A stretch of 64,000 bases of DNA from a virus (Duplodnaviria; Heunggongvirae; Uroviricota; Caudoviricetes). The notes under the pieces were generated by a model. The model was not told the origin of the DNA, ran no database searches, and worked only from the letters and a program-made list of their open reading frames with translations. The stretch lies in IMG/VR virus record IMGVR_UViG_2675903278_000002. One strand, 5' to 3'. Positions 24,642 to 39,693 of the stretch are shown in pieces; the first letter of the stretch is position 1, and each line of letters starts with the position of its first letter. The translations under genes and the position numbers were made by a program.

Positions 24642-24677
24642 ATATAGACACAATCCCTTCTGATTTACACAGTACCT

Positions 24678-24692
24678 AAAACAATTTGTTTT
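24678..24692 (+). promoter_or_regulatory. class-A palindromic motif (first of a tandem pair)
   Basis: AAAACAATTTGTTTT followed by CTGCC, same as motif at ~29301. Confidence 0.6.
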
Positions 24693-24727
24693 CTGCCTTT
24701 TGTTGATGGAGATAATAAACCACATAA

Positions 24728-24743
24728 GAAAACAACTTGTTTT
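24728..24743 (+). promoter_or_regulatory. class-A palindromic motif
   Basis: GAAAACAACTTGTTTT immediately upstream of RBS GGAGTGG and ATG 24756. Confidence 0.6.
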
Positions 24744-24755
24744 GGAGTGGTTGAA

Positions 24756-25055
24756 ATGTTGAACATTACCCAAGCCTACCAGGTGGCATTGATCAGCTCA
24801 TCTCATACATCAGAGGAAGATGCTCGCCGATTCATGATCGCAAGCAATGAGCTGGATTGGGTTTCACAAATTGAGTACGGTTGCATTGTCCACGCCGGGT
24901 TACAGGACGATGACTGGAAAGATGAGTTGCGTCGATATGGTATATCCGAGGGCGCGATTGCGAACATTCAGAAAGTACTTGATGTAGGCTTTGACTCTGT
25001 ACATTTTGATTGTGGTGCACCGGTCGTTGAAGGGCTAGAGTGCTGGCAATGGTAA
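24756..25055 (+). CDS. hypothetical small protein
   Basis: ~99 aa; ATG with GGAG upstream, in frame with track ORF 24747 (GTG). Confidence 0.6.
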   Translation: MLNITQAYQVALISSSHTSEEDARRFMIASNELDWVSQIEYGCIVHAGLQDDDWKDELRRYGISEGAIANIQKVLDVGFDSVHFDCGAPVVEGLECWQW

Positions 25056-25091
25056 TCCGGCAATCGCTTCATACTAGACAACGGAGAATTT

Positions 25092-25277
25092 ATGCTTAAA
25101 GAAGACTCATATCTACTAAAGGCGCTTGAAATGCGTGGCGTTGAACCTACAGTGAAAAACGCTCACGATATCTACCTTCAGTTTTCACCGGAGCTGAAAC
25201 GGTTCATAAATCAATACGGGGTTAATGACTCAAGTGTTAAAGCAATGATAGATGATGAATTAGACCATCTCATCTAA
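25092..25277 (+). CDS. hypothetical small protein
   Basis: 61 aa; RBS GGAG 7 nt upstream. Confidence 0.5.
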   Translation: MLKEDSYLLKALEMRGVEPTVKNAHDIYLQFSPELKRFINQYGVNDSSVKAMIDDELDHLI

Positions 25278-25429
25278 TCGTTTCCTATGATAATGGTTTT
25301 CACTTTGAGATTGTTATTTTTCATAGCTAAAGCTGATGTTTGTGGAAGGTGGATTGATAAACGGATGCGTATTTAGGTTATACAAGTGAGAAAATTGATA
25401 ATATATAAACGCGATTTTTATGTGATGGA

Positions 25430-25999
25430 ATGGATGTGATGGAAACCCAGAACCAACAAACAAAACCTCTGAATAACATTTATGCGTGGATTCTAGCGTT
25501 CATGCCTTTCTTCTTTGGAGTATCGCCGGAAGAGTATACCAATTACGCTATTATAATTGGGGGTGTAACTACCATCGGTTTGTTAGTAGCTGACAGAATG
25601 GCTCTATCGGAGTCTGGCTGTGAACCACCTTCAATTCTATGGGGGGTATTCCTCCTGCCTGTCTATCTCTGGAAGCGCGCGACTATTACAAAAGGCAGCA
25701 GAGTGCCATTTATCATAATCGTTGCGTCGCTGGCTTGGATTATCTTCATCGGCATCCCACACAAGGACGAGGTTGCTCTTGAAGAAGCAGCCTGCCCTCT
25801 CGTGACAACTATTCTGAAAGAGAATAACGGTTCGACTGCACCAAAATGTATGAAGGTGACAATAGAGGACAAGGTGACGGATAAGTTCTATAGAGCAACG
25901 GCTACACTAGACAATGGTAATGACATTAACATTACTCTGGAACTTACCGGCGACAGGAACTTCTACGTCCGTGTTCCAAATGTTTATCTGAACAACTAA
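25430..25999 (+). CDS. putative inner-membrane protein
   Basis: 189 aa; three hydrophobic helices, then a soluble C-terminal domain. Confidence 0.6.
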   Translation: MDVMETQNQQTKPLNNIYAWILAFMPFFFGVSPEEYTNYAIIIGGVTTIGLLVADRMALSESGCEPPSILWGVFLLPVYLWKRATITKGSRVPFIIIVASLAWIIFIGIPHKDEVALEEAACPLVTTILKENNGSTAPKCMKVTIEDKVTDKFYRATATLDNGNDINITLELTGDRNFYVRVPNVYLNN

Positions 26000-26109
26000 C
26001 GGTTGCAACTTATTGATAATGGCGGTCACAATTTGATTCTTTTCTATAAGAACCCGTTGATCGCCACTACTCCCCTCCCATACCAGCAATCACATCATTA
26101 AATATCAAT

Positions 26110-26960
26110 AGGTTATGGTTGTTTATACAAATAAGAAAACAACTAAATAACAGATCAACGAAACGTCAACGCTTTCACCCGATTTGGTCTAAAAAATTGA
26201 CGTTTTCACACATCACTTCTTATACCCGTAACTCTACGCAGCAGACATCGCCACAGCGTCCAATTTTCACCACAGACGACCCAACACACTACCAACAAAA
26301 ACACACGCTCAAAATCGCTCCCGTTGCGTTACACAACCATATAAACAACTTATTTTCAGGCATAACAAAACAACTAAATAACACACATGCCATTTCCAAA
26401 AACAACCAACCTCTTTATGGCAGGCTACCGAAAAGACCCACCTCTTCTCCCCAGGCTACCGGACAACCAACCTAACTTTCACAGGCAATCCGAAAACATT
26501 CATACGCGCGATACCCACGACACGCCATTACCCAAACAGCGAAGAAACACCAGAATCACTGAACCCCCAACGAAGCCTGTAACCGCAAGGCTTCTCTCAA
26601 TCCCAAAAGACACGAAACAGAACAATCACGGGAAACGCCATTACCCAACACACGAATAACTACAAAAGCCCTTCACGCACTCCAGACAAACAACTCAAAC
26701 ACAATAACGAAAGGAATCGCCCACCTGCCATTACTCCATACACGGAGAAGAACAATCACCAAAACGACGAGAACACCCCATAGAAGAACCACCGCAAAAC
26801 GAACGAAACCACATACACCGACAGAGAGAACAACACACCCAATTCACCAACAGAATTAGTCGCCGTATAGAACGTTCTGGAAGGAGTGAGTGTTAACGTC
26901 CATAGAGAGGTTGAGACAGATAAAACACGAATAAAACACAACATGTATAGCGAAGAAGCC
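26110..26960 (+). ncRNA. candidate non-coding transcript, A+C-rich and G-poor on the + strand
   Basis: ~0.85 kb strongly depleted in G and T; starts after a class-A-like half motif (AAGAAAACAACTAAATAACA, repeated ~240 nt in); ends at hairpin+T terminator ~26983-27007; ORFs here are low-complexity. Confidence 0.35.
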
Positions 26961-26982
26961 AGGTATGTATAAGTGGGGAGAG

Positions 26983-27007
26983 AAGGAGGGGTGTCGCCTC
27001 CTTTTTC
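26983..27007 (+). terminator. rho-independent terminator
   Basis: GGAGG-GGTGTCG-CCTCC followed by TTTTT. Confidence 0.65.
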
Positions 27008-27059
27008 GTATTTATTCAACTCCTGATTTTACCCCCCGTAACACCCCTACGGTCAGCCT

Positions 27060-27210
27060 TCGGTCCATACAGGGAAAAGGCTGCATCCCGCTACAGAAAC
27101 GGCTGGGTTGCCTTCGGGGAACGGCTGGAGGTTTTCAGGGAAACGGTCGAGTTGCCTGTGTGGATTTCGGGAAAAGGCTCGATGCCGGTTCAGGAACGGT
27201 GGCGTACCGG
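27060..27210. repeat. array of short iterated repeats (GGGAAAmGGCT-like), ~6 copies at ~20-30 nt spacing
   Basis: CAGGGAAAAGGCTG, CAGAAACGGCTGG, GGGGAACGGCTGG, CAGGGAAACGGTCG, CGGGAAAAGGCTCG, CAGGAACGGTGGCG in series; related array at ~31085-31260. Confidence 0.6.
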
Positions 27211-27535
27211 TATAGCGTGAGGGAGAGTTGCGGCTGTCCACCTGTAATGTGCGGGAAGAAGAGAGGCGCTCACGTGCAGGCGAACTTACTTACCGCTGGA
27301 TTCCCTCTGAATGCCCAGCTACAGCGTAATTGTGCCAGACAGTCAGCGGGTCACAATCGATTTCAGTAGGTTTTCGGGGAGAAGAAAATTCTGCCCACCA
27401 GCCCTGCGGCGCGCGTAGAGCAGAATATCGTAAATACTGGTTCCGTGTCGTTCCCGGATACTCACTACCCAGCCTGGCTTTCCCGACATAAAATCCTTTT
27501 CCGCCTTTGTCTTATTGCGATAATAACACCAACAA

Positions 27536-27552
27536 GTAAACAACATGTTTAG
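27536..27552 (+). promoter_or_regulatory. class-A palindromic motif
   Basis: GTAAACAACATGTTTAG preceded by CGATAATAACACCAACAAG box, upstream of ATG 27583. Confidence 0.6.
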
Positions 27553-27582
27553 ACGTTATATAAACGAAGTGAGGATGAAGAG

Positions 27583-27801
27583 ATGATTAAGATGCCTGTG
27601 ACGGTTGAGGTGTGGGGCGTGGATTCCCTGGCTGAGTGTCTGGATGCAGTGGGGCCGGAGTTGTACCGCAAGTTGTGGTCGTTCGTCCCGGCAGAAGGGG
27701 AATCGCCCAAAGGGAAGGATATCTGGCACCTGCTGAGTGAAGATGAAAAGCGGGAGCTGGTGGACGCGGTACACAGCGAGTTCCCGGGCGACGAAGATTA
27801 A
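27583..27801 (+). CDS. hypothetical small acidic protein
   Basis: 72 aa; RBS GAGGATGAAGAG; terminator follows. Confidence 0.6.
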   Translation: MIKMPVTVEVWGVDSLAECLDAVGPELYRKLWSFVPAEGESPKGKDIWHLLSEDEKRELVDAVHSEFPGDED

Positions 27802-27806
27802 GAGTG

Positions 27807-27830
27807 AGGCCACCAGCACGGTGGCTTTTG
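27807..27830 (+). terminator. rho-independent terminator (GGCCACC...GGTGGC family)
   Basis: GCCACC-AGCAC-GGTGGC hairpin followed by TTTTG. Confidence 0.7.
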
Positions 27831-27912
27831 TCGCTATTAACCTCCGGGCAGCGCAGCACCGTAACGATATACTTTGTGGCCGTTTTCTTACTGGTATTGT
27901 TTACGCAATTCA

Positions 27913-27930
27913 GAAAACAACATGTTTAAG
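27913..27930 (+). promoter_or_regulatory. class-A palindromic motif
   Basis: GAAAACAACATGTTTAAG; ~35 nt upstream sequence nearly identical to that before the motif at ~28396. Confidence 0.6.
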
Positions 27931-27939
27931 GATTGCGTT

Positions 27940-28269
27940 ATGTTTGCAAATATCGACATCAACCAAATCAAGAAAATGACTCAAAAAGAGTTTGACCAGT
28001 TTTATGAGTTAGAAGGTTGGTCTTCCACTCTGATCAATTCGCGGTGGGTGCTTGAGCTGATGACTCGTGATGACGCACCTGCTTTGATGATTTGCGACAT
28101 GGGTGAAGATGCTGACTTTATGGATATGAGCGAATTTTGTGTGGACACATACAACCGCAGCCAGAAGTACTACTTCACATGCGATAGCGAAAATGACGTG
28201 ATTTCTAAGGTCTATCTTCACCTCGTCCAGCATTGGGACGTTCAGGAGTTTCTTGAAGTATTCGAGTAA
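27940..28269 (+). CDS. hypothetical small acidic protein
   Basis: ~109 aa from ATG 27940 (AAGGA upstream), in frame with track ORF 27874; terminator follows. Confidence 0.6.
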   Translation: MFANIDINQIKKMTQKEFDQFYELEGWSSTLINSRWVLELMTRDDAPALMICDMGEDADFMDMSEFCVDTYNRSQKYYFTCDSENDVISKVYLHLVQHWDVQEFLEVFE

Positions 28270-28277
28270 CCCCAACC

Positions 28278-28303
28278 AAAGCCAGCATTGCTGGCTTAAT
28301 TTC
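28278..28303 (+). terminator. rho-independent terminator
   Basis: AAGCCAGC-ATT-GCTGGCTT hairpin then AATTTC. Confidence 0.65.
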
Positions 28304-28395
28304 TCTATAGCCGCAGGGAAGAACCTGCATATCGCTCATGCACCTGATCAATATGCTTTGTAGCCGTTTTCTTACTGGTATTATTTACGCCATTG

Positions 28396-28412
28396 AGAAA
28401 ACAAGTTGTTTA
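28396..28412 (+). promoter_or_regulatory. class-A palindromic motif
   Basis: GAAAACAAGTTGTTTAC upstream of RBS GGAG and ATG 28423. Confidence 0.6.
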
Positions 28413-28422
28413 CGGAGTTGTG

Positions 28423-28734
28423 ATGAAAAAATCATTGGTTCTTGGTCTGGACAAAGACCAGAAGAGAAAAGAGAAGCCTGCGCTGGTTGCTCAATTAACT
28501 TTGCTGGACATCGTTGCCAATGGAACCTCTATTCGTCTGTTCCGTGAAACAGCGGTGTCTTTCGATAAAAACACCTTTACTCGTTATGTAATGAATGTTC
28601 GTCGCCAGCGTGGAAAAGGCTGGGTGGCATTTCAAAGAATGTGGCCGGAACATCAGCTCGAACTGGCTTTGATGGAAGTTAACCGCGTGGCCCAGCAAGA
28701 GATTCAGAGAGCATCAGTGATGGCAATAGCCTGA
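28423..28734 (+). CDS. hypothetical small basic protein
   Basis: ~103 aa from ATG 28423, in frame with track ORF 28393; terminator follows. Confidence 0.6.
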   Translation: MKKSLVLGLDKDQKRKEKPALVAQLTLLDIVANGTSIRLFRETAVSFDKNTFTRYVMNVRRQRGKGWVAFQRMWPEHQLELALMEVNRVAQQEIQRASVMAIA

Positions 28735-28767
28735 TAATGTGCAAGTGGTAATTAGTCGACAGTACGA

Positions 28768-28797
28768 CAGCCCCGCCATCCTTACGGGGCTTTTTTG
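28768..28797 (+). terminator. rho-independent terminator
   Basis: GCCCCG-CCATCCTTA-CGGGGC hairpin followed by TTTTTT. Confidence 0.8.
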
Positions 28798-28860
28798 TAT
28801 TGTAAGTACATACTTATGATCATAGAATATAAAAATAACCAAAACACTACGGAGAGTGAA

Positions 28861-29256
28861 ATGACCGTTAAACGCGAAAAACTGACAGTTGATGTTTACT
28901 ATGCCTCTGAAACCGCCGAAGGTAAGAATGTGGCAAAAATCACCGTTGTTACGTACAACACCGAAACTGGTGCCGAAGTCCAGGCCAGTACGATCGTGCG
29001 TAAAGGTGATGCCTCCGACGGCGAGTACGCGACTCAATACCAGTCCATTCTCGATGCAACTGACCCGCTGCTGCTGAAAATCGAGAACTACTTCCGCCAG
29101 GTTGATGAAGAGGTGTTTGAAACCATGATGAATATGGTTAACACCGTATTCGCCTCCAACCTGAATACCAACACTACCTGGATTGGTCAGTACGGCCTGC
29201 GCATTACCTCTGGCATTCCTGCCGACACCTTAATCCCTGAAAGCGTATTCGCTTAA
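28861..29256 (+). CDS. hypothetical protein
   Basis: ~131 aa from ATG 28861 (GGAGAG upstream), in frame with track ORF 28795; terminator follows. Confidence 0.6.
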   Translation: MTVKREKLTVDVYYASETAEGKNVAKITVVTYNTETGAEVQASTIVRKGDASDGEYATQYQSILDATDPLLLKIENYFRQVDEEVFETMMNMVNTVFASNLNTNTTWIGQYGLRITSGIPADTLIPESVFA

Positions 29257-29263
29257 TCCTCTT

Positions 29264-29293
29264 TAAATGGCGCGTAAACCGCGCCATTTTCTT
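29264..29293 (+). terminator. rho-independent terminator
   Basis: AATGGCGCG-TAAAC-CGCGCCATT hairpin followed by TTCTT. Confidence 0.75.
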
Positions 29294-29300
29294 ATGCCCG

Positions 29301-29318
29301 ATAACAATTTGTTTTCTG
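29301..29318 (+). promoter_or_regulatory. class-A palindromic motif
   Basis: ATAACAATTTGTTTTCTG, same variant as at ~24678. Confidence 0.6.
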
Positions 29319-29373
29319 CCTTATCTGATTTGTGAAAATGATTTCACTGAAGCAACTTAATAAGGAAACCATC

Positions 29374-29748
29374 ATGGGACTTGATATCTATATCGAGACA
29401 CAGCCTAAAAACGATCTGAATAACGAGGCATCCAGAAAGCAGGTTGCTTACTTCCGTAAGTTCAATGCGCTCGTTGGGTGGATGGAGCGCAACGTAGGTG
29501 AAGTCGAAAATTGTGAGCTTTTAGAATTAACGATGAATGACATTTGTTTTCTGAAGGCTCATTTGATGCACATAAACGAAAGTAATTGCGAAGAGTACTT
29601 GCCTACCCGGGAAGGTTTTTTCTTCGGCAGTCAGGAGTACGATGAAGGTTACTGGCATGATGTGGGGCAGTTGAAAGAGCTTGTGGAAGATCTGATTAAG
29701 AACCACGACTTTCACAATAACAGACTGACCTTCTGCGCCTGGTGGTAA
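29374..29748 (+). CDS. hypothetical protein
   Basis: ~124 aa from ATG 29374 (AAGGAAACC upstream), in frame with track ORF 29332. Confidence 0.6.
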   Translation: MGLDIYIETQPKNDLNNEASRKQVAYFRKFNALVGWMERNVGEVENCELLELTMNDICFLKAHLMHINESNCEEYLPTREGFFFGSQEYDEGYWHDVGQLKELVEDLIKNHDFHNNRLTFCAWW

Positions 29749-29750
29749 AT

Positions 29751-29894
29751 ATGGGCGATTTCAAGAAACGCCTGAAGGAAAGAGCCGAGATGGTCAGAAA
29801 GCAAAACGCCTCTTCTGTCATCAGATACGCAAGGCAGTTTAGTCGCAACAACAAATCAGTTGAGGAAAAGATCCTTAGCGTAATCGGTCGATAA
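29751..29894 (+). CDS. hypothetical small basic protein (47 aa)
   Basis: ATG 2 nt after previous stop; product MGDFKKRLKERAEMVRKQ...; below track cutoff. Confidence 0.35.
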   Translation: MGDFKKRLKERAEMVRKQNASSVIRYARQFSRNNKSVEEKILSVIGR

Positions 29895-29900
29895 TTATTA

Positions 29901-29925
29901 AGGCCACCAGCATTGGTGGTCTTAA
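29901..29925 (+). terminator. terminator-like hairpin (GGCCACCA...TGGTGG family)
   Basis: AAGGCCACCAGCATTGGTGGTCTT; near-identical hairpin at ~30373. Confidence 0.55.
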
Positions 29926-30049
29926 ATGACTTTTAATAACCGAAGGTTAGTTTGAAACCTGGCTATCAACTTCCAGAACCTTTCTTGTGTATTCAGCCTG
30001 TATTAACTTCTTTTATGCCTTATCTACACTGCGATAATTACACCAACAA

Positions 30050-30067
30050 GAAAACAACATGTTTACG
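30050..30067 (+). promoter_or_regulatory. class-A palindromic motif
   Basis: AGAAAACAACATGTTTAC preceded by GCGATAATTACACCAACAAG box. Confidence 0.6.
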
Positions 30068-30077
30068 CAGTGAGGAT

Positions 30078-30365
30078 ATGCTCATGACTGATTTCACCAT
30101 TACCCCTAAAGCACAAAATGTATTTCTTGAATCATGGCTGGACTTGCCGGAAACAGAACAGCAAGAAATGGATCATGTGGATTATGACGAGCAGGTAAGC
30201 ACGCGATTCTTCCACTTTGAGGGATGCGTTTACGACATTGCTGACTTCATGCGAGATGACCGCTTCCCTGAATGGCACGCCAGTTATCCACTAAACGCCT
30301 TTGCCATGCTGATGATCCGTGTGGATGATTCAGGGGATACCATCGACATCGGTCTGCTCCACTAA
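30078..30365 (+). CDS. hypothetical small acidic protein
   Basis: ~95 aa from ATG 30078 (GTGAGGAT upstream), in frame with track ORF 29952. Confidence 0.55.
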   Translation: MLMTDFTITPKAQNVFLESWLDLPETEQQEMDHVDYDEQVSTRFFHFEGCVYDIADFMRDDRFPEWHASYPLNAFAMLMIRVDDSGDTIDIGLLH

Positions 30366-30370
30366 AGATT

Positions 30371-30396
30371 AAGGCCACCAATGCTGGTGGCCTTAA
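30371..30396 (+). terminator. terminator-like hairpin
   Basis: AAGGCCACCA-ATGC-TGGTGGCCTT, perfect 8-bp stem, then AAATG. Confidence 0.55.
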
Positions 30397-30534
30397 ATGA
30401 CCATCCTGTTTCCCGCAGGCTAAAAACACCAACCTCTTACCTCCAGGCAACCGACAAACCCACCTGTTCCCGTCCGGCTACCGCAACTTTCCACTTTGAC
30501 GCCTTATTCGTACAACGATAATTAACACCAACAA

Positions 30535-30555
30535 GAAAACAATTTGTTATTTACG
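30535..30555 (+). promoter_or_regulatory. class-A palindromic motif
   Basis: AGAAAACAATTTGTTATTTAC preceded by ACGATAATTAACACCAACAAG box. Confidence 0.6.
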
Positions 30556-30569
30556 ATAAGGAATTAATC

Positions 30570-31052
30570 ATGAATTTTATCGCTACTGTAAACGCACCCG
30601 CACATGGCAATATCGCTGTAACGTTCTCTGACATTGAAAAACGAGTACTTGGTGCATGGCGCGACAATGAGACGGTAGAACTGTCAGCACAAGAAAAATG
30701 CATTATTGCACGCGACATCATTGGCAATCGTCGTTACTCGCGGGTATTTGAGAAAGCGTATGTGGTAAATTCTGGGTTCGGAACGTTCGTCTTTCCGGTG
30801 CGCTCCGGGCGATTCTGCCAGTCCAAGCTGATTGAGTTCGCTACGCAGATTTCTGTCTGGATTAAAACTCAATCGTCGTTCAAATTTTCCGACGATGAAG
30901 CAGTATCGCAGGGGATGCGGATCGCCAACAATGCGATTAAATGCAAAAACATTACGTATACCGCTGGCGTTGATACATGGAAACTGTTTTGCGCTAACTT
31001 TATGCTGAATGTATACGCAAGCAACCGCATCCACATCCTTGATGGCGTGTAA
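30570..31052 (+). CDS. hypothetical protein
   Basis: 160 aa; RBS AAGGAATTAATC; hairpin terminator follows. Confidence 0.65.
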   Translation: MNFIATVNAPAHGNIAVTFSDIEKRVLGAWRDNETVELSAQEKCIIARDIIGNRRYSRVFEKAYVVNSGFGTFVFPVRSGRFCQSKLIEFATQISVWIKTQSSFKFSDDEAVSQGMRIANNAIKCKNITYTAGVDTWKLFCANFMLNVYASNRIHILDGV

Positions 31053-31055
31053 CTG

Positions 31056-31083
31056 AGAAGAGGGCCAGAAACGGCCCTTTCTC
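31056..31083 (+). terminator. rho-independent terminator
   Basis: AGGGCC-AGAAAC-GGCCCT hairpin followed by TTCTC. Confidence 0.7.
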
Positions 31084-31084
31084 T

Positions 31085-31260
31085 ATAGCCACCAGCTGCC
31101 GCAGGGAAATTTTCAGAAACGGCGAGGAACGTATTCATAAGCCGACGGGAAACGGCCAGGATTTTTTCGGGAAACGGCTGCATTCGCCTTTATGTAGAAA
31201 AAAACATCGGGAAGCTGGTGGAATCCAACCAGCGGTTGTCGGACAGGCGAGCGGGGAAAA
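31085..31260. repeat. second array of GGGAAACGG-like iterated repeats
   Basis: GCAGGGAAATT, CAGAAACGGCG, GACGGGAAACGGCC, TCGGGAAACGGCTG, ATCGGGAAGCTGG, GCGGGGAAAATT; begins with CTCTATAGCC box also seen after the terminator at ~28303. Confidence 0.6.
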
Positions 31261-31289
31261 TTATGATGACTTTCGTCGCCTGAGACATC

Positions 31290-31360
31290 CAGATTTCTTT
31301 CGTAGCATAATCACATACGTGATTAAGTGGTGTGATTATGTGAAAAATCACGCGCACATA
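31290..31360. promoter_or_regulatory. cluster of TCACA/TGTGA half-site palindromes
   Basis: AATCACATACGTGATT, GTGTGATTATGTGA, AATCACGCGCACATAAT within ~70 nt of AT-rich non-coding DNA. Confidence 0.35.
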
Positions 31361-31635
31361 ATACGCGAGCGGATACGGAACAAAACAAAATGCCGATCCG
31401 CGCCGACAAATAAACGCGGATCACATAGCAAGAATAAAAGCCAATGATTAGCCATACGTTATAGCGCAATATAACGCATTTTAAGCGCGTTAATGTGCTA
31501 AGTAATGGGTATGTACTGGTAAGGATATAAAAGCGCGTCTATGGCGTTATTTTGGCGCTTATTTTTATGTTGTTGGAGTGAGTTAAAGACAATAAAAAAC
31601 GCGCCATCATTGGCGCGCTATGGTGGGAGTATTGG

Positions 31636-31662
31636 AAACGAAAAAAGCGCCCATAGTGGGCG
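31636..31662 (-). terminator. rho-independent terminator for minus-strand cassette
   Basis: AAGCGCCCATAGTGGGCGCT hairpin with A-run on + strand; same 20-nt hairpin in inverse orientation at ~32139. Confidence 0.65.
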
Positions 31663-31669
31663 CTCGATT

Positions 31670-31900: not shown

Positions 31901-31921
31901 GATAAAGCTCCTTAAAAAAAA

Positions 31922-32125: not shown

Positions 32126-32138
32126 TTTTAAAGCTCCT

Positions 32139-32162: not shown

Positions 32163-32173
32163 GATTCCATTAA

Positions 32174-32824: not shown

Positions 32825-33069
32825 GATAATTTTTCCTTATGTAAATTTAAAATTTATTGTCGTTAGCGTCTTCGCTTTCGACGAGTTCAATTATCGATAT
32901 GCGAAAAAAGATTGCAAGTGTTTTTTTTAAATTTTTTGCAGGGATGAAAGTCCTAGAAATAAAAGCGAGATCGTCGAAGGTGTTCCCTAAATAAATAATT
33001 GATTGCGGCTTTAGACCTTATATATATTTAGGTTATTTGATTTGTAGATATAAAGAAGTGATGTGAAAA

Positions 33070-33098
33070 ATAATAACCGGACTTAGCCGGTTATTAAC
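33070..33098. terminator. bidirectional hairpin terminator
   Basis: AATAACCGG-ACTTAG-CCGGTTATT between the two minus-strand cassettes. Confidence 0.6.
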
Positions 33099-33107
33099 CT
33101 TATAGAT

Positions 33108-33416
33108 TTATTGAACAGACTCTACAGCCTTACGATTGGTGTCAAATAGCGCATCAACGAACTGTGCCGATGACTCGCTAGATTCGCAATCCAACATTGC
33201 CCGTTCTTCATTTGCCACTTTCTTACACAGTTCCACATTCTCACCTATCGCTTTTCCTGCTTTTACGGCTGCCGAAAATTGATACATGCAAACTGATACA
33301 TTCTGAGACGTTGAGCACACGTCATTCATCAGCGACTGAATGACAGGCTTATAGTCCATTGCATTTGCCGCAACTGAGCAAAGTAAAAATAATGGTGGTA
33401 ACAATATCGATTTCAT
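33108..33416 (-). CDS. putative secreted/periplasmic small protein
   Basis: 102 aa; N-terminal signal peptide MKSILLPPLFLLCSVAANA; several Cys. Confidence 0.6.
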   Translation of the reverse strand: MKSILLPPLFLLCSVAANAMDYKPVIQSLMNDVCSTSQNVSVCMYQFSAAVKAGKAIGENVELCKKVANEERAMLDCESSESSAQFVDALFDTNRKAVESVQ

Positions 33417-33419
33417 AAC

Positions 33420-33944
33420 TCAAAAAGGCAAAATTCGTTCAACCCAATCGAACAAAACAACTATTTTTCTACCGTTCTCGACACGTAGTGTAACCTGACA
33501 AGCATCTGCGCCTGCTGACACCCCCTCAATTTCACGGCCATCCGCCATGTACACCCTTATAGATTTGTTTGCTTTGTAGGCTTGGTTGCAAATTGCAAAA
33601 AAATCGCGGCGTGATGGCCGATTATCGACATAATCAGGGTGAACTGTTAGTCGACCTTTGAAATCGTGAGCGATACTGTCAACCACACCTGATTCAATTG
33701 TACTAATGCGTTCAAGTGGGAGCCTTATACGATTTTCTTTGTCAAAAGGGGCTGGGCAAAGGTCAACTTTGTTACGAGATGGCATGAGGCCATAAACGTA
33801 CATGCAAAACGCCTGGCCATCTTCGAGAGTGACCCTTACAGGAATTTGTTCTCTGCGCCAGAACATCAGTAGTTTTTCAACGTTAGTGTAATCTCGCGGC
33901 CAGAGTTCAGCTTGGATACCGTAGGTAATATCTTTGGTTGTCAT
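33420..33944 (-). CDS. hypothetical protein
   Basis: ~174 aa from internal Met (MTTKDITYG...) of track ORF 33420..34022; ATG 1 nt after the upstream lipoprotein gene stop. Confidence 0.55.
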   Translation of the reverse strand: MTTKDITYGIQAELWPRDYTNVEKLLMFWRREQIPVRVTLEDGQAFCMYVYGLMPSRNKVDLCPAPFDKENRIRLPLERISTIESGVVDSIAHDFKGRLTVHPDYVDNRPSRRDFFAICNQAYKANKSIRVYMADGREIEGVSAGADACQVTLRVENGRKIVVLFDWVERILPF

Positions 33945-33948
33945 ATCA

Positions 33949-34371
33949 TCACAGAGTTGTTGGCAGAATGTCGATGTCACCAGAATTGCTGGTAAACACC
34001 CTGAACGCTTTTGTGTCTCCATTCTTCAGAGTCGTTTCTCGCTCTTGACGAGCGGGGTTTAGAGCACATAAACCTGCACCTTCAAGAGATGCACCCACAA
34101 TTAATTCTCCGGCATTTAAATGGAAAGTCGCTTTTTCGCCTGTAGCCAGTTTTGCGACAGTTTCGCCGTTGATGAAAATGGAAGCATCACATCCAGCTCC
34201 TACAAAACCTGTGTCTCTCATTACCACCAACGTAGCTGGCGCTGCGCTTTGATACTTGAACACTTTGGCCTGCGGTGCTGGTTTGGCGTCATGGATTGAT
34301 ATTGGGTGTGATTGGCACGCGGCAAGCATCAACACTGGTAACGTTAGTAGAGGGAGAAGCGAGTATTTCAT
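33949..34371 (-). CDS. putative lipoprotein (candidate superinfection-exclusion protein)
   Basis: ~140 aa from internal Met (MKYSLLPLLTLPVLMLAACQ...); lipobox LAAC; function inferred by analogy. Confidence 0.6.
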   Translation of the reverse strand: MKYSLLPLLTLPVLMLAACQSHPISIHDAKPAPQAKVFKYQSAAPATLVVMRDTGFVGAGCDASIFINGETVAKLATGEKATFHLNAGELIVGASLEGAGLCALNPARQERETTLKNGDTKAFRVFTSNSGDIDILPTTL

Positions 34372-34439
34372 GATAGTTTTAGAACAGAAAGTGAACAGTA
34401 TGGGAGACTTCATCTTTGTCTCCCTAATTGATAGCGTGA

Positions 34440-34718
34440 TTATTTTAATCTGCTTAATAGCGTTTCGAGATCTTCCTTTGTCATATTAGAGTTCTCATAG
34501 ATACGCATGATTTTCTCACGAGTCTTAGCGGAAGCCCCGACAGAAGATATAACCTTGTCAAAGTCGGCCATTGTCAATTGTTCCAGAATGGTATTTATGA
34601 CTTCAGCCTTAGACATTTTGATATTTTTTTCTTTTAGTTTCACTTGAAACTTTCCAAGTTTGTCATTGGCCTTATCAGACAATGCTACCTGACAGTAAGT
34701 TGTTTTCTTTTCACTCAT
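34440..34718 (-). CDS. hypothetical protein
   Basis: 92 aa ORF immediately downstream of the helicase gene on the minus strand. Confidence 0.55.
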   Translation of the reverse strand: MSEKKTTYCQVALSDKANDKLGKFQVKLKEKNIKMSKAEVINTILEQLTMADFDKVISSVGASAKTREKIMRIYENSNMTKEDLETLLSRLK

Positions 34719-34720
34719 AA

Positions 34721-36280
34721 CTAATCTCGTTTCAGAACTCCAAAATCGAATGCTCCATCAATAGGCAATACACCTTCTGCAAAGCCAGGTGTGGTGTCGA
34801 TGATGTGTTTTCGCTCATAAGAGTGAGACAACAGGTATTTGTTGCTAATGTCAATGAAATCAGTGATAAAACACACGTTTGCCTGATTTTTTTTGGCTCG
34901 TAAGCCACGACCGACACGCTGCCTCATTTCAACTTCTGCTTTTCCACCACCAGCCAGAATGACCGCACCAACGCTTGGCACATCAACACCGACATCCAGA
35001 ATAGTCGAGCCTATTAAAACATCTATTTCGCCAGACGCTAAACTGTTCAGCTTTGCTTGCCTTGTCGCCTGGTTCGATTCCCCATAGATGAAGTCAACTT
35101 TAAGACCTGACTCCTTCATCATCTCCATCAGGATTTGCCCGTGGCGTTTAAGACGAACCAGAGTCATGCAATTGAGAGAATGTTGCTTATAGAGCAATGC
35201 TTCGCGCACAATGGCCTCGTTACGTCCCAAATTATACACGATCCCCAACTGATAAGCCTTTTGGTAGGCTGTGCTCATACCTACTCTAAAATTAAGGTGT
35301 TTGTTGGCAAGTTCCGCCTTGATTCTGACCTCGTCTGGCTTGTAAGCAACTTTATGATAAAGGAAGTACGGTTTTGCCAGAATGCCTCGATCAATCAGGT
35401 ACTTTTCTGTGACTTTAATTTCAATTCGACCGGCCACAGCCATCAGACGCATGTTGGCTTCTGTAGAATCCTTCATGAACGGCGTGGCCGTAAGCGCCAG
35501 ACGATAGTCTGCGTTCACACATAATCTGGCAATGTCATAGAAATTAGAGCCTGAAGACTCATGCGCTTCTTCCAGAATAAGCAGAGACACACTTGAAAGG
35601 AAGCGTTTCACCAACTCCCGACGTTTGAGGTGGTAGCTTTTCTTATCTGGTGTTGCATCGCGTGGTGGTTCTTCGAGGAAACTTGCAAGAGTTTGAACTG
35701 TAGCGACGTTGATATGTCGTGATACCTGGAACTCACCCGAGCCAATGACTCCAACCTTTTGGTCTTTTAACCACGGTTCGCCATTTTCGGCGCGGTAGTC
35801 GATGGATCTCTGGAAGTTTTCGGCCATTTGAAACATCAGAACAGAGCGGGTTGTTAAAAATAATGTCATTCGACCGATACGTGCAGCTGCTTTGCAGGCA
35901 ACGTTAGATTTCCCGCCACCAGTAGCGATCTGCGCAATCATCATTCCCTCTCGAACCAGTGTTTCCACAGTCTGATCCTGATACGCATAATCAGGATTGT
36001 ATGGGAATGGGTTAACCGCCGGATTTGGTTTACCAAGCGCCGGGGCTTTGTCTTTGCGGATATGAACACATTTGATGCCCGCCTTGTTCAAGTTCGCCGC
36101 TACAGGCTTGGCAAAGCCAGCAGGGAACGAGTTTTTACTCCAGTTGAACATCGTGCTTGTGCCCTTCCAGTCGCCAGTCTCGACTTCGTAGCTCAACATT
36201 TGCTGCACCAGTTGCTTTACCTTGTCATCTGCGCCAGAAATAAGCGCATTTACTGCGTTAGATACAATCCGAACAGTCAT
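34721..36280 (-). CDS. SF2 DNA/RNA helicase (DEAD/DEAH-like)
   Basis: 519 aa; Walker A IATGGGKS, motif II LILEEAHE, C-terminal domain with QRVGRGLR arginine finger. Confidence 0.88.
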   Translation of the reverse strand: MTVRIVSNAVNALISGADDKVKQLVQQMLSYEVETGDWKGTSTMFNWSKNSFPAGFAKPVAANLNKAGIKCVHIRKDKAPALGKPNPAVNPFPYNPDYAYQDQTVETLVREGMMIAQIATGGGKSNVACKAAARIGRMTLFLTTRSVLMFQMAENFQRSIDYRAENGEPWLKDQKVGVIGSGEFQVSRHINVATVQTLASFLEEPPRDATPDKKSYHLKRRELVKRFLSSVSLLILEEAHESSGSNFYDIARLCVNADYRLALTATPFMKDSTEANMRLMAVAGRIEIKVTEKYLIDRGILAKPYFLYHKVAYKPDEVRIKAELANKHLNFRVGMSTAYQKAYQLGIVYNLGRNEAIVREALLYKQHSLNCMTLVRLKRHGQILMEMMKESGLKVDFIYGESNQATRQAKLNSLASGEIDVLIGSTILDVGVDVPSVGAVILAGGGKAEVEMRQRVGRGLRAKKNQANVCFITDFIDISNKYLLSHSYERKHIIDTTPGFAEGVLPIDGAFDFGVLKRD

Positions 36281-36322
36281 AAACCTCTTTCCTTAGTGCC
36301 TTTTGTATGTTATTTGGCTATT

Positions 36323-36347
36323 ATAATAAGTAAGTGATTACTTAGTG
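36323..36347. repeat. class-B palindrome in divergent intergenic region
   Basis: TAATAAGTAAGTGATTACTTAGTGG between helicase (-) and ParB-like (+) starts; overlaps a TATAAT hexamer. Confidence 0.55.
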
Positions 36348-37043
36348 GATTGTAGCAATAAAATGGATGTAAAAATCACGATTTTGCAGGTTGATGTTGC
36401 CAACCTTCGCCCGAATACCTGGAACACCAATTCGGTTGGTGCGCAGAATTTTGAAAAACTGAAAGGTTCTATCGAAAAATTGGGCTTTTTTAAGCCAATT
36501 TTGGCTCGTGAACTTGAAGATGGATTTTTTGAAATCCTCGGCGGTGAACATCGCTGGCGTGCTGCTATTGAGCAAGGAATTTCAACGGTTCCGGTGCTTT
36601 CTGTGGGCAAAATTAGCGATGTCGTAGCTAAACAGATGTCACTGGTGGACAACGAGCGATACGGTGAAGACGACCAAATCGCATTGCAACGCTTCATTGA
36701 AGAAATTCAGTCAGAACTTGACTATCAACTGTCTGAAATCGCCCCGTATGACGACGAAATCTCGATGGTTTTAGCAAAAGAGGCGGCAATCGACCTTGAA
36801 GCACTGGAGGCGTTGTCTCGTGGTAGTGATGAGCCTGTCGATACCGACAAACGAGAGAAAACCGAACGTGTGGGTGCGGAACATCAGACCATGCGCTTCA
36901 AAGTAACTTTCGATGCGTCAGATCGTGTTGCAGAAACCATAAAAAACATCATCAAAGAGCAGGCTATTAACACCGGTAATGAAATGGAGAACGCTGGTGA
37001 GGCTCTGGTGTGGCTGGTCGACTACTACAAGGAGCGTATGTAA
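36345..37043 (+). CDS. ParB-like nuclease domain protein
   Basis: 232 aa; ParB/Srx-like N-terminal motif FEILGGEHRWRAA; track start is GTG 36345, ATG at 36363 also possible. Confidence 0.8.
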   Translation: MDCSNKMDVKITILQVDVANLRPNTWNTNSVGAQNFEKLKGSIEKLGFFKPILARELEDGFFEILGGEHRWRAAIEQGISTVPVLSVGKISDVVAKQMSLVDNERYGEDDQIALQRFIEEIQSELDYQLSEIAPYDDEISMVLAKEAAIDLEALEALSRGSDEPVDTDKREKTERVGAEHQTMRFKVTFDASDRVAETIKNIIKEQAINTGNEMENAGEALVWLVDYYKERM

Positions 37044-37711
37044 TGACCAAAAAGTTTGAAATCGTATATCGCGACCCGGCAGATCTTATTCCCTATGAGA
37101 TGAATGCCAAAAAGCATGATGAACAGCAGATCAGAGATTTGGCCGCAGCCATTAAAAAGCGCGGATTTGACCAGCCAATTACGGTCGATAAGAACGACGT
37201 AATTATTACTGGCCACGGCCGCCGTGAGGCTGCAATTTTTGCTGGACTTGAGCGCGTACCGGTTATTGTTCGTGATGATCTGAGTGATGACGAGGTTCGT
37301 GCGAAGCGCCTTGAAGATAACCGACTTGCCAGCATTGATTACGATGCAATTAAGCTACAGAAAGAGCTTGAGTCGCTTGTTCTGGACGATATTGAGGTTT
37401 TCGGCTTTGAAGAGCGTGAGTTGAATGTTCTCGTTGGCAGTATGACAGAAGAAATGGACACCGACTCGCTAGTTATCGATCTTGGCGAAGAAACTAAACG
37501 ACAGAAGGATGAACACACCGAGATCAGTCGTGAAGTTGCAGCGGAAGAAGTACGTGTTGTCGACGTATTGGGCTTTAAAACGCTCCCTGCTGGCTCTGCC
37601 ATTGTTGTTGGTGATTTGCTTGCCCATATGGAAGAAATGACGGGAGAAAGCGGGGTAGACGCATTTGTGGCATATGCGGAGAAGATCTCTTCCGGGGAGA
37701 TGGCTGCATGA
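37043..37711 (+). CDS. ParB-like nuclease domain protein (second paralogue)
   Basis: ~222 aa from ATG overlapping previous stop; ParB-like ITGHGRREAA; acidic C-terminal half. Confidence 0.8.
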   Translation: MTKKFEIVYRDPADLIPYEMNAKKHDEQQIRDLAAAIKKRGFDQPITVDKNDVIITGHGRREAAIFAGLERVPVIVRDDLSDDEVRAKRLEDNRLASIDYDAIKLQKELESLVLDDIEVFGFEERELNVLVGSMTEEMDTDSLVIDLGEETKRQKDEHTEISREVAAEEVRVVDVLGFKTLPAGSAIVVGDLLAHMEEMTGESGVDAFVAYAEKISSGEMAA

Positions 37712-38373
37712 GCAAATACATCATCAACGTATCGTTTCAGACACGCGTAAATAAAACCACGCGCACGTTGGAAATCGCTGAGTCGTTCGGGCTTGGCCTG
37801 GACGAAAAAGAGTGGACGCTTTACGACAATCTGGAGCTGGAAGTGAAGCAGGGCGATGTGGTGTACATCACCGGCCAATCCGGTTCCGGCAAATCCGTTG
37901 TGCTGCGCGAGTTGCAACGACAGATGAAGGATGAAGGGCTGTCTGTAGCCTCCATCGATGATTTTACCTTCGATAATGAGGTTAACGTCATCGATCAGTT
38001 GGGCAAAACGACCAGTGATGCGCTTGGGTTGTTATCTATGGCTGGTCTGAACGATGCATATCTGTTTGTTCGCAAGCCTTCTGAAATGTCAGACGGCCAG
38101 AAATATCGTCTCAAGATTGCCAAACTGATTGAGTCAGGCGCTAAAGTATGGGCTGCTGACGAGTTCGGCGCTGTTCTCGACCGTGTAACCGCTCAGGTTG
38201 TGGCGTCTAACCTCCAGCGTGCCGCTCGAAAGGTTGGTGCGACGGTAATGGTGGCGACGACTCACGAAGACCTGAAGAACGCGCTGCGCCCTGATATGCA
38301 GATCACCAAGCACTACAAAGAACGCGTGAAGGTGGAATATCACAATGGTAGTCATGATGAGGTCCATTCATGA
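37708..38373 (+). CDS. ABC-type ATPase
   Basis: 221 aa; Walker A ITGQSGSGKS, signature-like MSDGQKYRLKIA, Walker B VWAADEF; coupled to ParB-like genes. Confidence 0.8.
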   Translation: MSKYIINVSFQTRVNKTTRTLEIAESFGLGLDEKEWTLYDNLELEVKQGDVVYITGQSGSGKSVVLRELQRQMKDEGLSVASIDDFTFDNEVNVIDQLGKTTSDALGLLSMAGLNDAYLFVRKPSEMSDGQKYRLKIAKLIESGAKVWAADEFGAVLDRVTAQVVASNLQRAARKVGATVMVATTHEDLKNALRPDMQITKHYKERVKVEYHNGSHDEVHS

Positions 38374-39260
38374 CGGACATCATCATTAAACGCTACCGCC
38401 CTGAAGAGTTTCCGCGTCATCTGGACTTTCTGGAGCGAATGACTGTTACAAAGGGAACTGTAGAGGACTGGCACGCTCTTAAGTCGCTTCACTACAAAAC
38501 AGACGGCAAACCTTTCGCGCCAACTTACTATCGCTGCGAACTTGATGACCGTCTGGTGGGCGTCGTGGTTATGGCTTACCCGAAACTACTGTTGGCACCT
38601 CGCCACCGCATGTTTCCTAAGTTGAAACCAACCACTAATACCACCGTGGCTAACCAGTACTGGGGTCGGTACGTGAATAACAACTTTGCGGTGATCAGTC
38701 GCTCAGTTGTGGATACTCAGTATCGTGGCGTAGGCGTCTCTTATAGAATGATTAACCTGGTTAGCAGGATGCATGACCGGCCAATCATTGAGATCCAGTC
38801 CTCGATGAGCAAATACAATCCCTTCGCCATGAAAGCAGGGTTTAAGTTCATCCGCCCTGAGCGACCGAAGAGCTATGAAAGTGCACTGCGTGTGTTCCAG
38901 CGCCATTTCCGCTCCGACCCGGGTGATAACGAGGCGATCGTCAAAGAGTTGTTCGCTATGAGCGAGTCTCGTCGTCGCCGTGCGCTGCGCGATTTGGTGG
39001 CGGACTACCATAAGAACAGTTCCCTGGCAAAAGCTGGGCGGAATCGTGGCACGACGATTCAGGACATTGCCGACAGTCTGGTGGACGAGGCCAGCATTGT
39101 GAAGCTGCTCAAGGACATTCACAACCTGAGCTTTACGTCTCCGTTGTATGGTGTGTACCGAAACCCTGACTTTGGCCGTCGACTGCCTGACACGCTGCCA
39201 CTGCTGGCATTCGACAAACAACCTTTGGATAAACCGTTAGAAATTGCTTTACCGGCATAA
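38370..39260 (+). CDS. hypothetical protein, possibly acetyltransferase-like
   Basis: 296 aa; overlaps previous stop; QYRGVGVSYRMINLV loosely resembles a GNAT acyl-CoA site; low confidence on function. Confidence 0.65.
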   Translation: MTDIIIKRYRPEEFPRHLDFLERMTVTKGTVEDWHALKSLHYKTDGKPFAPTYYRCELDDRLVGVVVMAYPKLLLAPRHRMFPKLKPTTNTTVANQYWGRYVNNNFAVISRSVVDTQYRGVGVSYRMINLVSRMHDRPIIEIQSSMSKYNPFAMKAGFKFIRPERPKSYESALRVFQRHFRSDPGDNEAIVKELFAMSESRRRRALRDLVADYHKNSSLAKAGRNRGTTIQDIADSLVDEASIVKLLKDIHNLSFTSPLYGVYRNPDFGRRLPDTLPLLAFDKQPLDKPLEIALPA

Positions 39261-39269
39261 GGATTTGCC

Positions 39270-39536
39270 ATGACGTTAACCGACAAACAAAAGGACATCA
39301 TCAAAACGCTCAATCTCGGTTATGAGCGAGGTCATCTACTTGACCTGGACGAATTGCTTGAAGTTTTGCCGTACAAGACAACCAAGCAAAGTATCCAGTT
39401 CTCAATTCGCGCTCTGATAAAAAAGGGGCTGGTGGAGAAAGGGCATACGCGCCAACGCAGTGACAATCGCTATCACCGCCGGACTCTTGGGTTAACCACT
39501 TTAGGTCGAGCCAAAGCGAAGTTACTGGTGATGTAA
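39270..39536 (+). CDS. small basic protein, possible DNA-binding
   Basis: 88 aa; lysine/arginine-rich with helix-turn-helix-like segment; immediately upstream of packaging genes. Confidence 0.6.
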   Translation: MTLTDKQKDIIKTLNLGYERGHLLDLDELLEVLPYKTTKQSIQFSIRALIKKGLVEKGHTRQRSDNRYHRRTLGLTTLGRAKAKLLVM

Positions 39537-39560
39537 TCGGTCTGGGAGCTTATTTAAAGA

Positions 39561-39616
39561 CCTGCATCTGTATATATAAATAATAAGTAACTTATTAAAT
39601 ATATACGGAAGCAGGC
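39561..39616. repeat. long AT-rich hairpin element, copy 2 of 2
   Basis: CCTGCATCTG ... CGGAAGCAGGC around AT-rich loop; homologous to element at 10075-10131; ~115 nt upstream of terminase small subunit. Confidence 0.7.
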
Positions 39617-39650
39617 TTCGTAAGACATGCCAGACCTAATTAAACACCCC

Positions 39651-39693
39651 AGAAAACAAGTTGGTTAGCAGATGCAGTAAACAAGTTGTTTTA
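39651..39693 (+). promoter_or_regulatory. tandem class-A palindromic motifs plus hairpin, upstream of packaging operon
   Basis: AGAAAACAAGTTGGTTA and GTAAACAAGTTGTTTTA ~10 nt apart, followed by AGAGCGC-ATGGAC-GCGCTCT hairpin. Confidence 0.6.

Follow-up and report, generated by a model that had tools for sequence, protein, structure and literature searches.

A dispersed palindrome on the promoters of an SSU5-type phage-plasmid is probably a family of repressor operators

What reads a short palindrome that stands ahead of gene after gene in a virus of the class Caudoviricetes, and is it read as DNA or as RNA? The question is raised by IMG/VR record IMGVR_UViG_2675903278_000002, of which a stretch of 64,000 nucleotides (nt; the window below means this whole stretch) was analysed, and in which an original prediction had noticed a palindrome, here called class A, that might be a promoter or operator or else an mRNA 5' hairpin controlling translation. 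We conclude that class A is probably a dispersed family of DNA operators belonging to a phage-plasmid repressor. Its binder is most likely a phage-encoded repressor that silences genes during plasmid life; that the bound protein represses is something we infer, and the view that its occupancy would lower transcription rests indirectly on RNA sequencing (RNA-seq) of lysogens.

A palindrome family ahead of genes in one phage-plasmid

The window was scanned with the pattern AGAAAACAANNTGTTTA, allowing up to two mismatches, which returned 17 matches against 0.31 expected from 100 dinucleotide shuffles (s.d. 0.54; the largest shuffle gave 3, and none reached 17). The matches at 39676 and 39678 are the two strands of one site and were merged, and the match at 23445, which has two mismatches and lies within the MetRS gene, is probably due to chance and was dropped, leaving 15 sites, all of them non-coding. 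Class A is a 17-base near-palindrome, AGAAAACAAnnTGTTTA, with the core TAAACAAnTTGTTTA, which is two-fold symmetric at ±1 to ±6. Exact copies of the symmetric core AAACA-N3-TGTTT number 9 in the window, 11 in the phage-plasmid Cyrano, 14 in Salmonella phage SSU5 and 14 in the Klebsiella phage-plasmid pJN2-26, compared with 0.03–0.3 in shuffles. The family is therefore real, as first proposed, and all 13 positions then listed were recovered to within 2 nt, although two further real copies, at 17810 and 26342, had been overlooked. Other details of the first description hold in part. The distance from the 17-mer to the start codon, given as a uniform 20–45 nt, is in fact 10–31 nt at ten sites and 39–73 nt at five; the ribosome-binding context said to be frequent, GGAAAAACACATG, is confined to four or five of the 15, most of which belong to the left module; and of the conserved 5' leader only TAAACAAnTTGTTTA is the symmetric unit, the 5' AGA being part of the promoter's initial transcribed region and not of the palindrome. 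The translation start context (A)GGAAAAACACATG is itself conserved among several unrelated genes (starts 2363, 12578, 13301 and 17898).

Cyrano, the pLF82 phage-plasmid of Escherichia coli LF82, is 97–99% identical to the window over 24400–31400 and 39500–50000, stretches that are also 92–99% identical to other E. coli SSU5-like phage-plasmids, about 81% identical to SSU5 and about 79% identical to Klebsiella phage-plasmids. A 'host-like' block encoding MinD-like, MetRS and HumD proteins is annotated in Cyrano as part of the element, and therefore the whole window is a single phage-plasmid of the SSU5/pHCM2 type; the original prediction that the motif-bearing regions on both sides of this block belong to one element is borne out. 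The class-A family is kept in SSU5, pJN2-26, Yersinia pestis pMT1/pFra, Enterobacter- and Nissabacter-type relatives and a distant Klebsiella oxytoca plasmid, and is absent from a Moellerella relative (one genome). An exact-pattern scan of viral contigs gave mostly chance single matches and was uninformative, those contigs with several matches being of the lengths usual for this family.

A scan of Cyrano relative to gene starts, as had been suggested, placed 16 of 21 matches within intergenic DNA, which makes up 13% of the annotated genome, and all 16 lie 11–71 nt upstream of a gene start on the same strand. The genes behind them include terS (two sites), parA, a helicase gene, cobT, nrdB, tciA and many small ORFans. 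The commonest 9-mer of the Cyrano genome is AGAAAACAA, and class-A 7-mers lead its list of intergenic k-mers; its commonest 11-mer is AAAAACACATG. Phylogenetic footprinting of orthologous spacers found the flanks fairly conserved as well, so that the palindrome is no isolated island.

A fixed register to predicted promoters

The palindrome appears to be tied to promoters and not to start codons. When the sites of the window, SSU5 and pJN2-26 (37 forward, 14 inverted) were aligned on the palindrome centre, every forward site had T at −20 (37/37) and only A or T at −19 and −18, with A at −22 in 27 and G at −27 in 23 of the 37 (a TGn-type extension). Typical boxes read TGcGATAAT, GGTATTAT or CTAATT, and CC then AA occupy −15 to −12, followed by AGAAAACAAnTTGTTTa. 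Between this −10-like box, which stands immediately upstream of most copies and had gone unremarked in the original prediction, and the palindrome there are zero insertions or deletions among the 37 sites, whereas the start codon may lie anywhere from 18 to 72 nt away. If the invariant T ends a −10 hexamer, the predicted transcription start would lie about 13 nt before the centre, with the core at +8 to +20. Inverted sites come after a terminator-like hairpin, and G(A/T)AAAT stands beyond them at an unvarying spacing of 19 nt; therefore these copies would overlap the −35 region, which their TTGTTTTCT arm is predicted to occupy with the palindrome centred near −38. A symmetric core whose centres fall near +14 or near −38 relative to the nATAAT box of a predicted promoter is the arrangement looked for in a repressor operator. 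The palindrome itself is not a −35/−10 pair (hexamers resembling TTGACA and TATAAT, 16–18 bp apart), as had been recognized; in the −38 type the TTGTTT arm merely occupies the −35 region.

The class-A sites of the window are as follows.

2316–2332, plus strand: class-A site AGATAACAACTTGTTTA in the nrdA–nrdB spacer after a hairpin, 30 nt before the nrdB start at 2363; no convincing −10 box, and an extra TTGTTTA half-site 24 nt upstream of the centre; orthologues at SSU5 70216 and pJN2-26 (Kpn) 7462.
12538–12554, plus strand: class-A site 23 nt before the start (12578) of a TciA/TerB-like gene; the Cyrano equivalent is at 80546.
13267–13283, plus strand: perfect class-A site 17 nt before the start (13301) of a gene for a protein of 189 amino acids (aa), with TTGCTC-N16-CACAAT promoter-like boxes upstream.
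17810–17826, minus strand: class-A site of the −38 type directly after a terminator-like hairpin, its TTGTTTTCT arm overlapping the −35 region of the ...TGTGAAAAT promoter of an Eae-like gene (start 17898); orthologues at SSU5 85608 and pJN2-26 (Kpn) 21779.
24678–24743, plus strand: double-operator promoter with centres at 24685 (about −38) and 24736 (about +14), 51 base pairs (bp) apart, and GATAAT at 24711–24716; the next gene starts at 24756 (DUF5983, 99 aa).
26342–26358, minus strand: inverted class-A site with two mismatches, 30 nt before a start at 26387; promoter boxes unclear.
27519–27551, plus strand: TGcGATAAT, AACACCAACA and a class-A site (27535–27551) before a gene start at 27583.
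27895–27928, plus strand: TATTGT −10-like box and a perfect class-A site (27912–27928) before a gene start at 27940.
28379–28412, plus strand: TATTAT −10-like box and a perfect class-A site (28396–28412) before a gene start at 28423.
29301–29317, minus strand: class-A site of the −38 type, then GCCTTATCTGATTTGTGAAAAT, before a gene start at 29374.
30033–30065, plus strand: TGcGATAAT, TACACCAACA and a perfect class-A site (30049–30065) before a gene start at 30084.
30517–30550, plus strand: GATAAT, with TTGACG 15 nt upstream, and a class-A site (30534–30550) before a gene start at 30570.
39651–39692, plus strand: two class-A sites with centres at 39660 and 39685, 25 bp apart, upstream of the terminase small-subunit gene (terS).

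The 51-bp pair at 24678–24743 is kept in three genomes, recurring in SSU5 (88325/88376) and pJN2-26 (28545/28596). The pair at 39651–39692 heads the structural-gene operon and is also found in SSU5 (62/87); pJN2-26 (Kpn) has one site there (38634).

The relation between site and promoter changes between lineages. The K. oxytoca plasmid CP056499 has eight or nine promoters with the same core, GCC...GGATAAT...ACACCAACAAGA, on which the palindrome stands almost only at −38, as cGTAAACAAnTTGTTTACt, and the −10 box has no copy behind it; what the site moves around is therefore the promoter and not the mRNA leader. The AGA, found whether the palindrome is there or not, would accordingly be the start region of the promoter. 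The cobT site is inverted between Cyrano and SSU5.

Several familiar promoter and host-factor identities appear unsuited to these sites. GCGATAA resembles the GCCGATAA of a σ28 promoter, but no TAAAGTTT lies at the right distance, and no single-subunit RNA polymerase gene is annotated in the relatives. The KdgR box, which we take to be the sole host-factor site sharing the AAACA/TGTTT half-sites, has a 1-bp centre as against the 3-bp centre of class A.

Motif-linked genes are silent in lysogens

Per-gene RNA-seq values for Cyrano in LF82 lysogens have a background median of 9.8 (supplementary table of PMC9928086). Thirteen of the 16 first genes behind a motif read 5.7–14 in that table: terS 7.1, cobT 7.8, hyp58 5.7, nrdB 12.9, tciA 7.0, hyp87 7.1, eae 6.3, hyp101 7.5, hyp104 14.3, hyp105 12.8, hyp106 12.2, hyp108 5.7 and hyp110 6.7; the other three are hyp111 (25.5), the helicase gene (21) and parA (50). 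Motif-linked transcription units are thus silent in plasmid life, though many have good −10 boxes. The operator option of the original prediction, and its idea of a phage-encoded regulator, fit both this silence and the fixed register to a −10-like box or overlap with the −35 region.

We therefore favour a scheme in which one operator would be used about 15 times in the window and about 20 times per genome in SSU5/pHCM2/pMT1-type phage-plasmids. Most copies would sit on one family of promoter cassettes, typically made up of a weak −35 region, a conserved GCC-TTTTCTTA spacer, nATAAT and a CACCAACAAGA start region and often preceded by a terminator hairpin, with the operator over the −35 region (centre about −38), 20 bp past the last T of the −10 box (+8 to +20), or at both positions, 51 bp apart. 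A symmetric DNA-binding protein encoded by the phage-plasmid and made in lysogenic life would bind these sites and block RNA polymerase binding or escape, and early and accessory operons, together with the terS entry to the structural operon, would thereby be silenced. Repression is the simplest action that would serve at −38 and +14 alike, and the +14 site is unsuited to an activator because a second promoter would not fit ahead of the start codon.

An alternative interpretation is that the palindrome recruits a phage activator or a modified RNA polymerase to early or middle promoters that lack a −35 element, as Mor and C of Mu or the MotA boxes of T4 do. The weak −35 regions, the failure of every promoter here in a σ70 consensus scan, the rigid spacing to the −10 box and the lysogen silence of the downstream genes are all as expected of such a site, and about −38, the position that dominates in the K. 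oxytoca relative, is that of a class II activator. However, 37 of 51 SSU5-type copies (about 70%) lie downstream of the −10 box, at a predicted +8 to +20 where an activator is unexpected, and the start codon 10–31 nt away leaves no space for another promoter. The same action at −38 and +14 speaks most simply for a repressor, and the parA promoter, which carries a +14 copy, is active in lysogens and so needs no induction-specific activator. For these reasons we consider activation unlikely.

It is also conceivable that the repeat is kept only as part of a mobile terminator–promoter cassette that shuffles accessory genes, with no dedicated binder. Between 24.7 and 31 kb each small ORFan is flanked by a terminator hairpin, a promoter cassette and a palindrome, gene content differs among close relatives (75–83% of 24400–31400 covered), and neighbouring cassettes, such as those at 27912 and 28396, are near-duplicates. 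But the palindrome also precedes the core genes nrdB, helicase, cobT, parA and terS outside cassette sequence, is retained while flanks diverge and shifts position on the promoter between lineages, and about 50 sites show base-for-base conservation of both arms, which a recombination target alone does not need. We regard this explanation as very unlikely.

A DNA site rather than an RNA hairpin

The suggestion of an mRNA 5' hairpin controlling translation does not survive. As RNA, the 17-mer would form a hairpin of −0.7 kcal/mol, and the z-scores of the leaders (−1.1 to +0.5) are no better than those of shuffles. Among 50 distinct sites the pairs at ±2 to ±6 each show one Watson–Crick type only and all deviations are one-sided, with four C–A breaks of the only G–C pair and not one compensatory double change; therefore it is the sequence that is conserved and not a structure. 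Many copies, moreover, come straight after terminator hairpins and ahead of the −10 box, outside the downstream mRNA. A comparison of the window with Rfam gave no match above a family's gathering score, and a structured cis-regulatory RNA was rejected, since stable folding, compensatory pairs and an Rfam match were all wanting. The K. oxytoca case is the most telling evidence for DNA over RNA.

A protein could also read the leaders as RNA: those of about 20 mRNAs would be bound by the FljA-family protein of the element, with blocked translation or mRNA decay as the outcome. FljA-type repressors have been reported to prevent fliC mRNA translation (PMC2652032), and the FljA-like protein is expressed in lysogens, is present in all seven motif-bearing lineages and is absent from the motif-less Moellerella relative. 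Forward copies stand 10–31 nt from start codons, the motif consists of an A-rich and a U-rich arm, and the Salmonella fliC leader contains CAAGUUGU. The faces of Hfq prefer such A-rich or U-rich sequences, and the FljA-like protein is conserved in the phage-plasmids of Klebsiella, whose cells are non-flagellate. Set against this, the −38 copies after terminators, which are the majority in K. oxytoca, lie outside the mRNA, spacing is fixed to the −10 box and not to the ribosome-binding site, and a two-fold symmetry is thermodynamically meaningless in an RNA with the folding energy and one-sided changes given above. The mRNA levels are themselves at background in lysogens, Salmonella fliC leaders match the motif at only 8 of 15 specified positions, the E. 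coli K-12 leader lacks even the 8-mer, and Rfam holds no matching family. We rate an RNA-level operator as highly improbable, and return to a repressor acting on DNA.

Candidate binders

Two proteins of the window were considered in most depth as binders of the palindrome.

34440–34718, minus strand: candidate binder of 92 aa (CYRAN_117, phrog_1466) in the operon UvsW–117–lipoprotein–FljA-like.
33420–33944, minus strand: FljA-family protein (PF03614), an outsider candidate.

The 92-aa protein is our best guess, a tentative one that is somewhat likelier to be wrong than right. Its gene reads 114 in lysogens against the background of 9.8 (PMC9928086), and its sequence has a strand-helix-helix pattern resembling ribbon-helix-helix proteins. 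The N-terminal segment xCQVxL(S/T)x(K/R)AN ... SK(A/S) is kept in every motif-bearing lineage (E. coli, SSU5, pJN2-26, Enterobacter-type, Nissabacter-type, pMT1 and K. oxytoca), down to an overall identity of 35% in K. oxytoca, and in the Moellerella homologue, where the motif family is gone, this segment is changed (VVQFRATAKSQ ... PSIE). Neither Pfam nor the PDB gave a match for it. A profile search for distant homologues was set aside as circular, its patterns having contained CQV, and the six loci it returned 'without FljA' are incomplete contigs. The first codons of the 92-aa gene themselves contain a half-site (34695–34711, minus strand, ATGAGTGAAAAGAAAACAACTTACTGT) with a perfect left arm, AGAAAACAA, and a degenerate right arm, which may be a weak autoregulatory site or a coincidence.

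The FljA-family protein matches PF03614 with E = 2.5e-84 (281.7 bits, cut-off 24) and is confidently predicted to consist of two tandem Sm/Hfq-like domains, a modelled fold that would suit the reported action on fliC mRNA better than promoter binding. It occurs in all seven motif-bearing lineages and, like the motif, is missing from Moellerella; its co-variation with the motif gives no handle, the motif being identical down to 52% protein identity. That this protein reads the palindrome as promoter DNA, possibly melted or single-stranded, in the manner of Sm-like WYL domains, is a long shot. If it did, the Salmonella phase-variation repressor FljA would be a domesticated global regulator of phage-plasmids, and an Hfq-like fold would be a sequence-specific promoter silencer.

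Other regulators fit less well. The CI-like repressor CYRAN_45, encoded outside the window, has GGTAAGTGCTTACC-type repeats and not class A in its own control region and was rejected. The winged helix-turn-helix protein gp123 (39270–39536) is disfavoured: its gene reads at background in lysogens, and even the motif-less Moellerella relative has the same recognition helix. HumD (20876–21265) is a UmuD-like protein and no regulator. The ParG-like protein next to ParA is likewise disfavoured, its reading strand being kept in Moellerella; pMT1 is not among its matches though pMT1 has the motif, and the copy on the parA promoter is present even beside a 48%-identical homologue. A Cyrano gene that comes after parA, outside the window (Cyrano 29975–30334), annotated as 'RelE/ParE putative toxin', looks like a ParG-type ribbon-helix-helix centromere-binding protein, with a basic tail followed by ...SRTMSLEDEYFELL...TRSDVIRAAI..., and is 90–100% conserved across genera.

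Evidence that weighs against repressor operators

We caution that several observations tell against the scheme favoured here, both in its promoters and in its binder. The σ70 consensus scan, which asked for 9 or more matching positions out of 12, picks up none of these promoters, their −35 regions being weak or oddly spaced; the sites at nrdB, 12538 and 26342 have no convincing −10 box; and the −10-like boxes are promoters by inference. Their constant spacing could be largely inherited from duplicated promoter cassettes rather than selected. A good copy occupies the same register at the parA promoter, whose operon nevertheless reads 50–89 in lysogens, and lysogen silence would equally follow from a missing activator. 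For the 92-aa protein, AlphaFold2 places helices at 15–30 and 37–47 with a predicted local distance difference test (pLDDT) score of only 58, which makes the fold tentative, and hhalign against the ribbon-helix-helix proteins Arc/Mnt/CopG/ω/ParG gives the expected register with P = 0.011 but a probability of only 3.9%. The negative case in its co-variation with the motif is a single genome, that of Moellerella, and the FljA-like protein co-occurs with the motif equally well in that comparison.

Comparison with known dispersed operators

By analogy, class A would work like the C1 operators of P1, the stoperators of L5, the φC31 repeats and the KorA/KorB regulon, but it belongs to none of them because sequences and proteins differ. 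The C1 repressor of P1, a protein of 283 aa, reads asymmetric Op sites of about 17 bp (ATTGCTCTAATAAATTT) scattered over the genome. As in P1, many single operators are dispersed over a plasmid prophage of about 100 kb, overlap or abut the promoters of unlinked operons, among them those for a replication helicase, a methylase and late-gene control, and would keep lytic genes off during maintenance. Class A differs in its two-fold symmetric core, TAAACAAnTTGTTTA, and its far more rigid register to the −10 box; the annotations of Cyrano, SSU5 and pJN2-26 list no C1 homologue, and membership in the P1 family was rejected on these grounds.

The stoperators of mycobacteriophage L5 and other cluster A phages, the sites of gp71, were reportedly described by Brown et al. 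in 1997. They resemble class A in comprising some 20–30 copies of a 13–17-bp site in intergenic gaps, mostly in one orientation and downstream of promoters, with a part in prophage silencing; they are asymmetric and block elongation far from promoters, whereas class A is mostly locked to a −10-like box or a −35 region and owes its apparent orientation bias to the AGA start region of the promoter. The conserved inverted repeats (CIRs) of Streptomyces phage φC31, about 18 copies of a 17-bp sequence bound by the c repressor, are likewise highly conserved and stand next to many similar early promoters, but host group, sequence and repressor are unrelated and the φC31 early promoters are not σ70-like. 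In the IncP plasmid RK2, KorB and KorA act on 13-bp and 12-bp palindromes at 12 and 7 promoters, respectively; these too are short, odd-centred palindromes at alternative positions on many promoters of one replicon, the partition operon included, but their sequence differs (TTTAGCSGCTAAA) and KorB belongs to the ParB family. The window's own pair of ParB_N proteins (36345–37711) is unexpressed in lysogens, and no link between them and the motif came to light. Finally, the promoter-early stem-loop (PeSL) cassettes of T4-type phages, reportedly described by Arbiol et al. in 2010, also combine a terminator stem-loop with an early promoter in repeated units between small accessory genes of a hyperplastic region, although PeSLs have no separate conserved palindromic protein site and class A also occurs outside a cassette context.

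Neighbouring features and a second palindrome

Two features flank the operators at the entry to the structural operon.

39693–39721, plus strand: GC-rich, terminator-like hairpin, AGAGCGC-N6-GCGCTCT and then GTGTGTTTT, downstream of the operator pair and ahead of the terS ribosome-binding site.
39567–39606: long inverted repeat rich in A and T (GTATATATAAATAATAAGTAACTTATTAAATATATAC), which immediately precedes the terS promoter region and coincides with the first positions of the Cyrano and SSU5 records; it may serve packaging or regulation.

The hairpin is conserved in SSU5, pJN2-26 (Kpn) and a Nissabacter-type relative. Read from its sequence, this hairpin with its U-rich tract GUGUGUUUU resembles an intrinsic terminator or attenuator, and late-operon entry past it might require antitermination. 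Elsewhere, 24756–31052 is a run of small ORFans, each with its own terminator–promoter–operator cassette and one with DUF5983. The stretch 24400–31400 is only 75–83% covered in the nearest phages, and in its organization the run recalls the hyperplastic early regions known from phages; anti-defence genes may be among its contents.

Another palindrome, class B, is dispersed as well; it has the consensus ATAGGTAAGTnnTTACCTAT and appears as GGTAAGTGCTTACC in the control region of the CI-like repressor CYRAN_45. Its copies in the window stand in the short gaps that precede dam, the ParB operon, the genes for the portal and the tail fibre, and others:

9431–9444: class-B site.
11646–11659: class-B site.
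16616–16629: class-B site.
36329–36342: class-B site.
41620–41633: class-B site.
62042–62055: class-B site.

There are at least 15 copies in pJN2-26 and at least 10 in SSU5; the copy in the CYRAN_45 control region is at 42606 in Cyrano and 90502 in pJN2-26. Class B may be the operator or stoperator set of this CI-like repressor, although SSU5 has class-B sites and no repressor or integrase module annotated at the corresponding place. Repeats of CTATAGTGG were recognized as RepA iterons outside the window.

Implications for phage-plasmid quiescence

Phage-plasmids of the SSU5/pHCM2/pMT1 type, which can bear resistance genes, are common in E. coli, Klebsiella, Salmonella Typhi and Yersinia pestis, and their quiescence as plasmids and switch to lytic growth are essentially unstudied; a search of the accessible literature on SSU5/pHCM2 promoters, repressors, operators and motif strings found no paper on this motif or on the repressor circuitry. 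Class A together with the CI-linked class B suggests a two-layer silencing system. The class-A family defines a regulon of about 20 promoters, predicts their geometry and narrows the candidate repressors to a short list. Unsurprising in principle, the motif would offer a concrete and testable handle on lysis–lysogeny control in a clinically widespread group that includes pHCM2 and pMT1.

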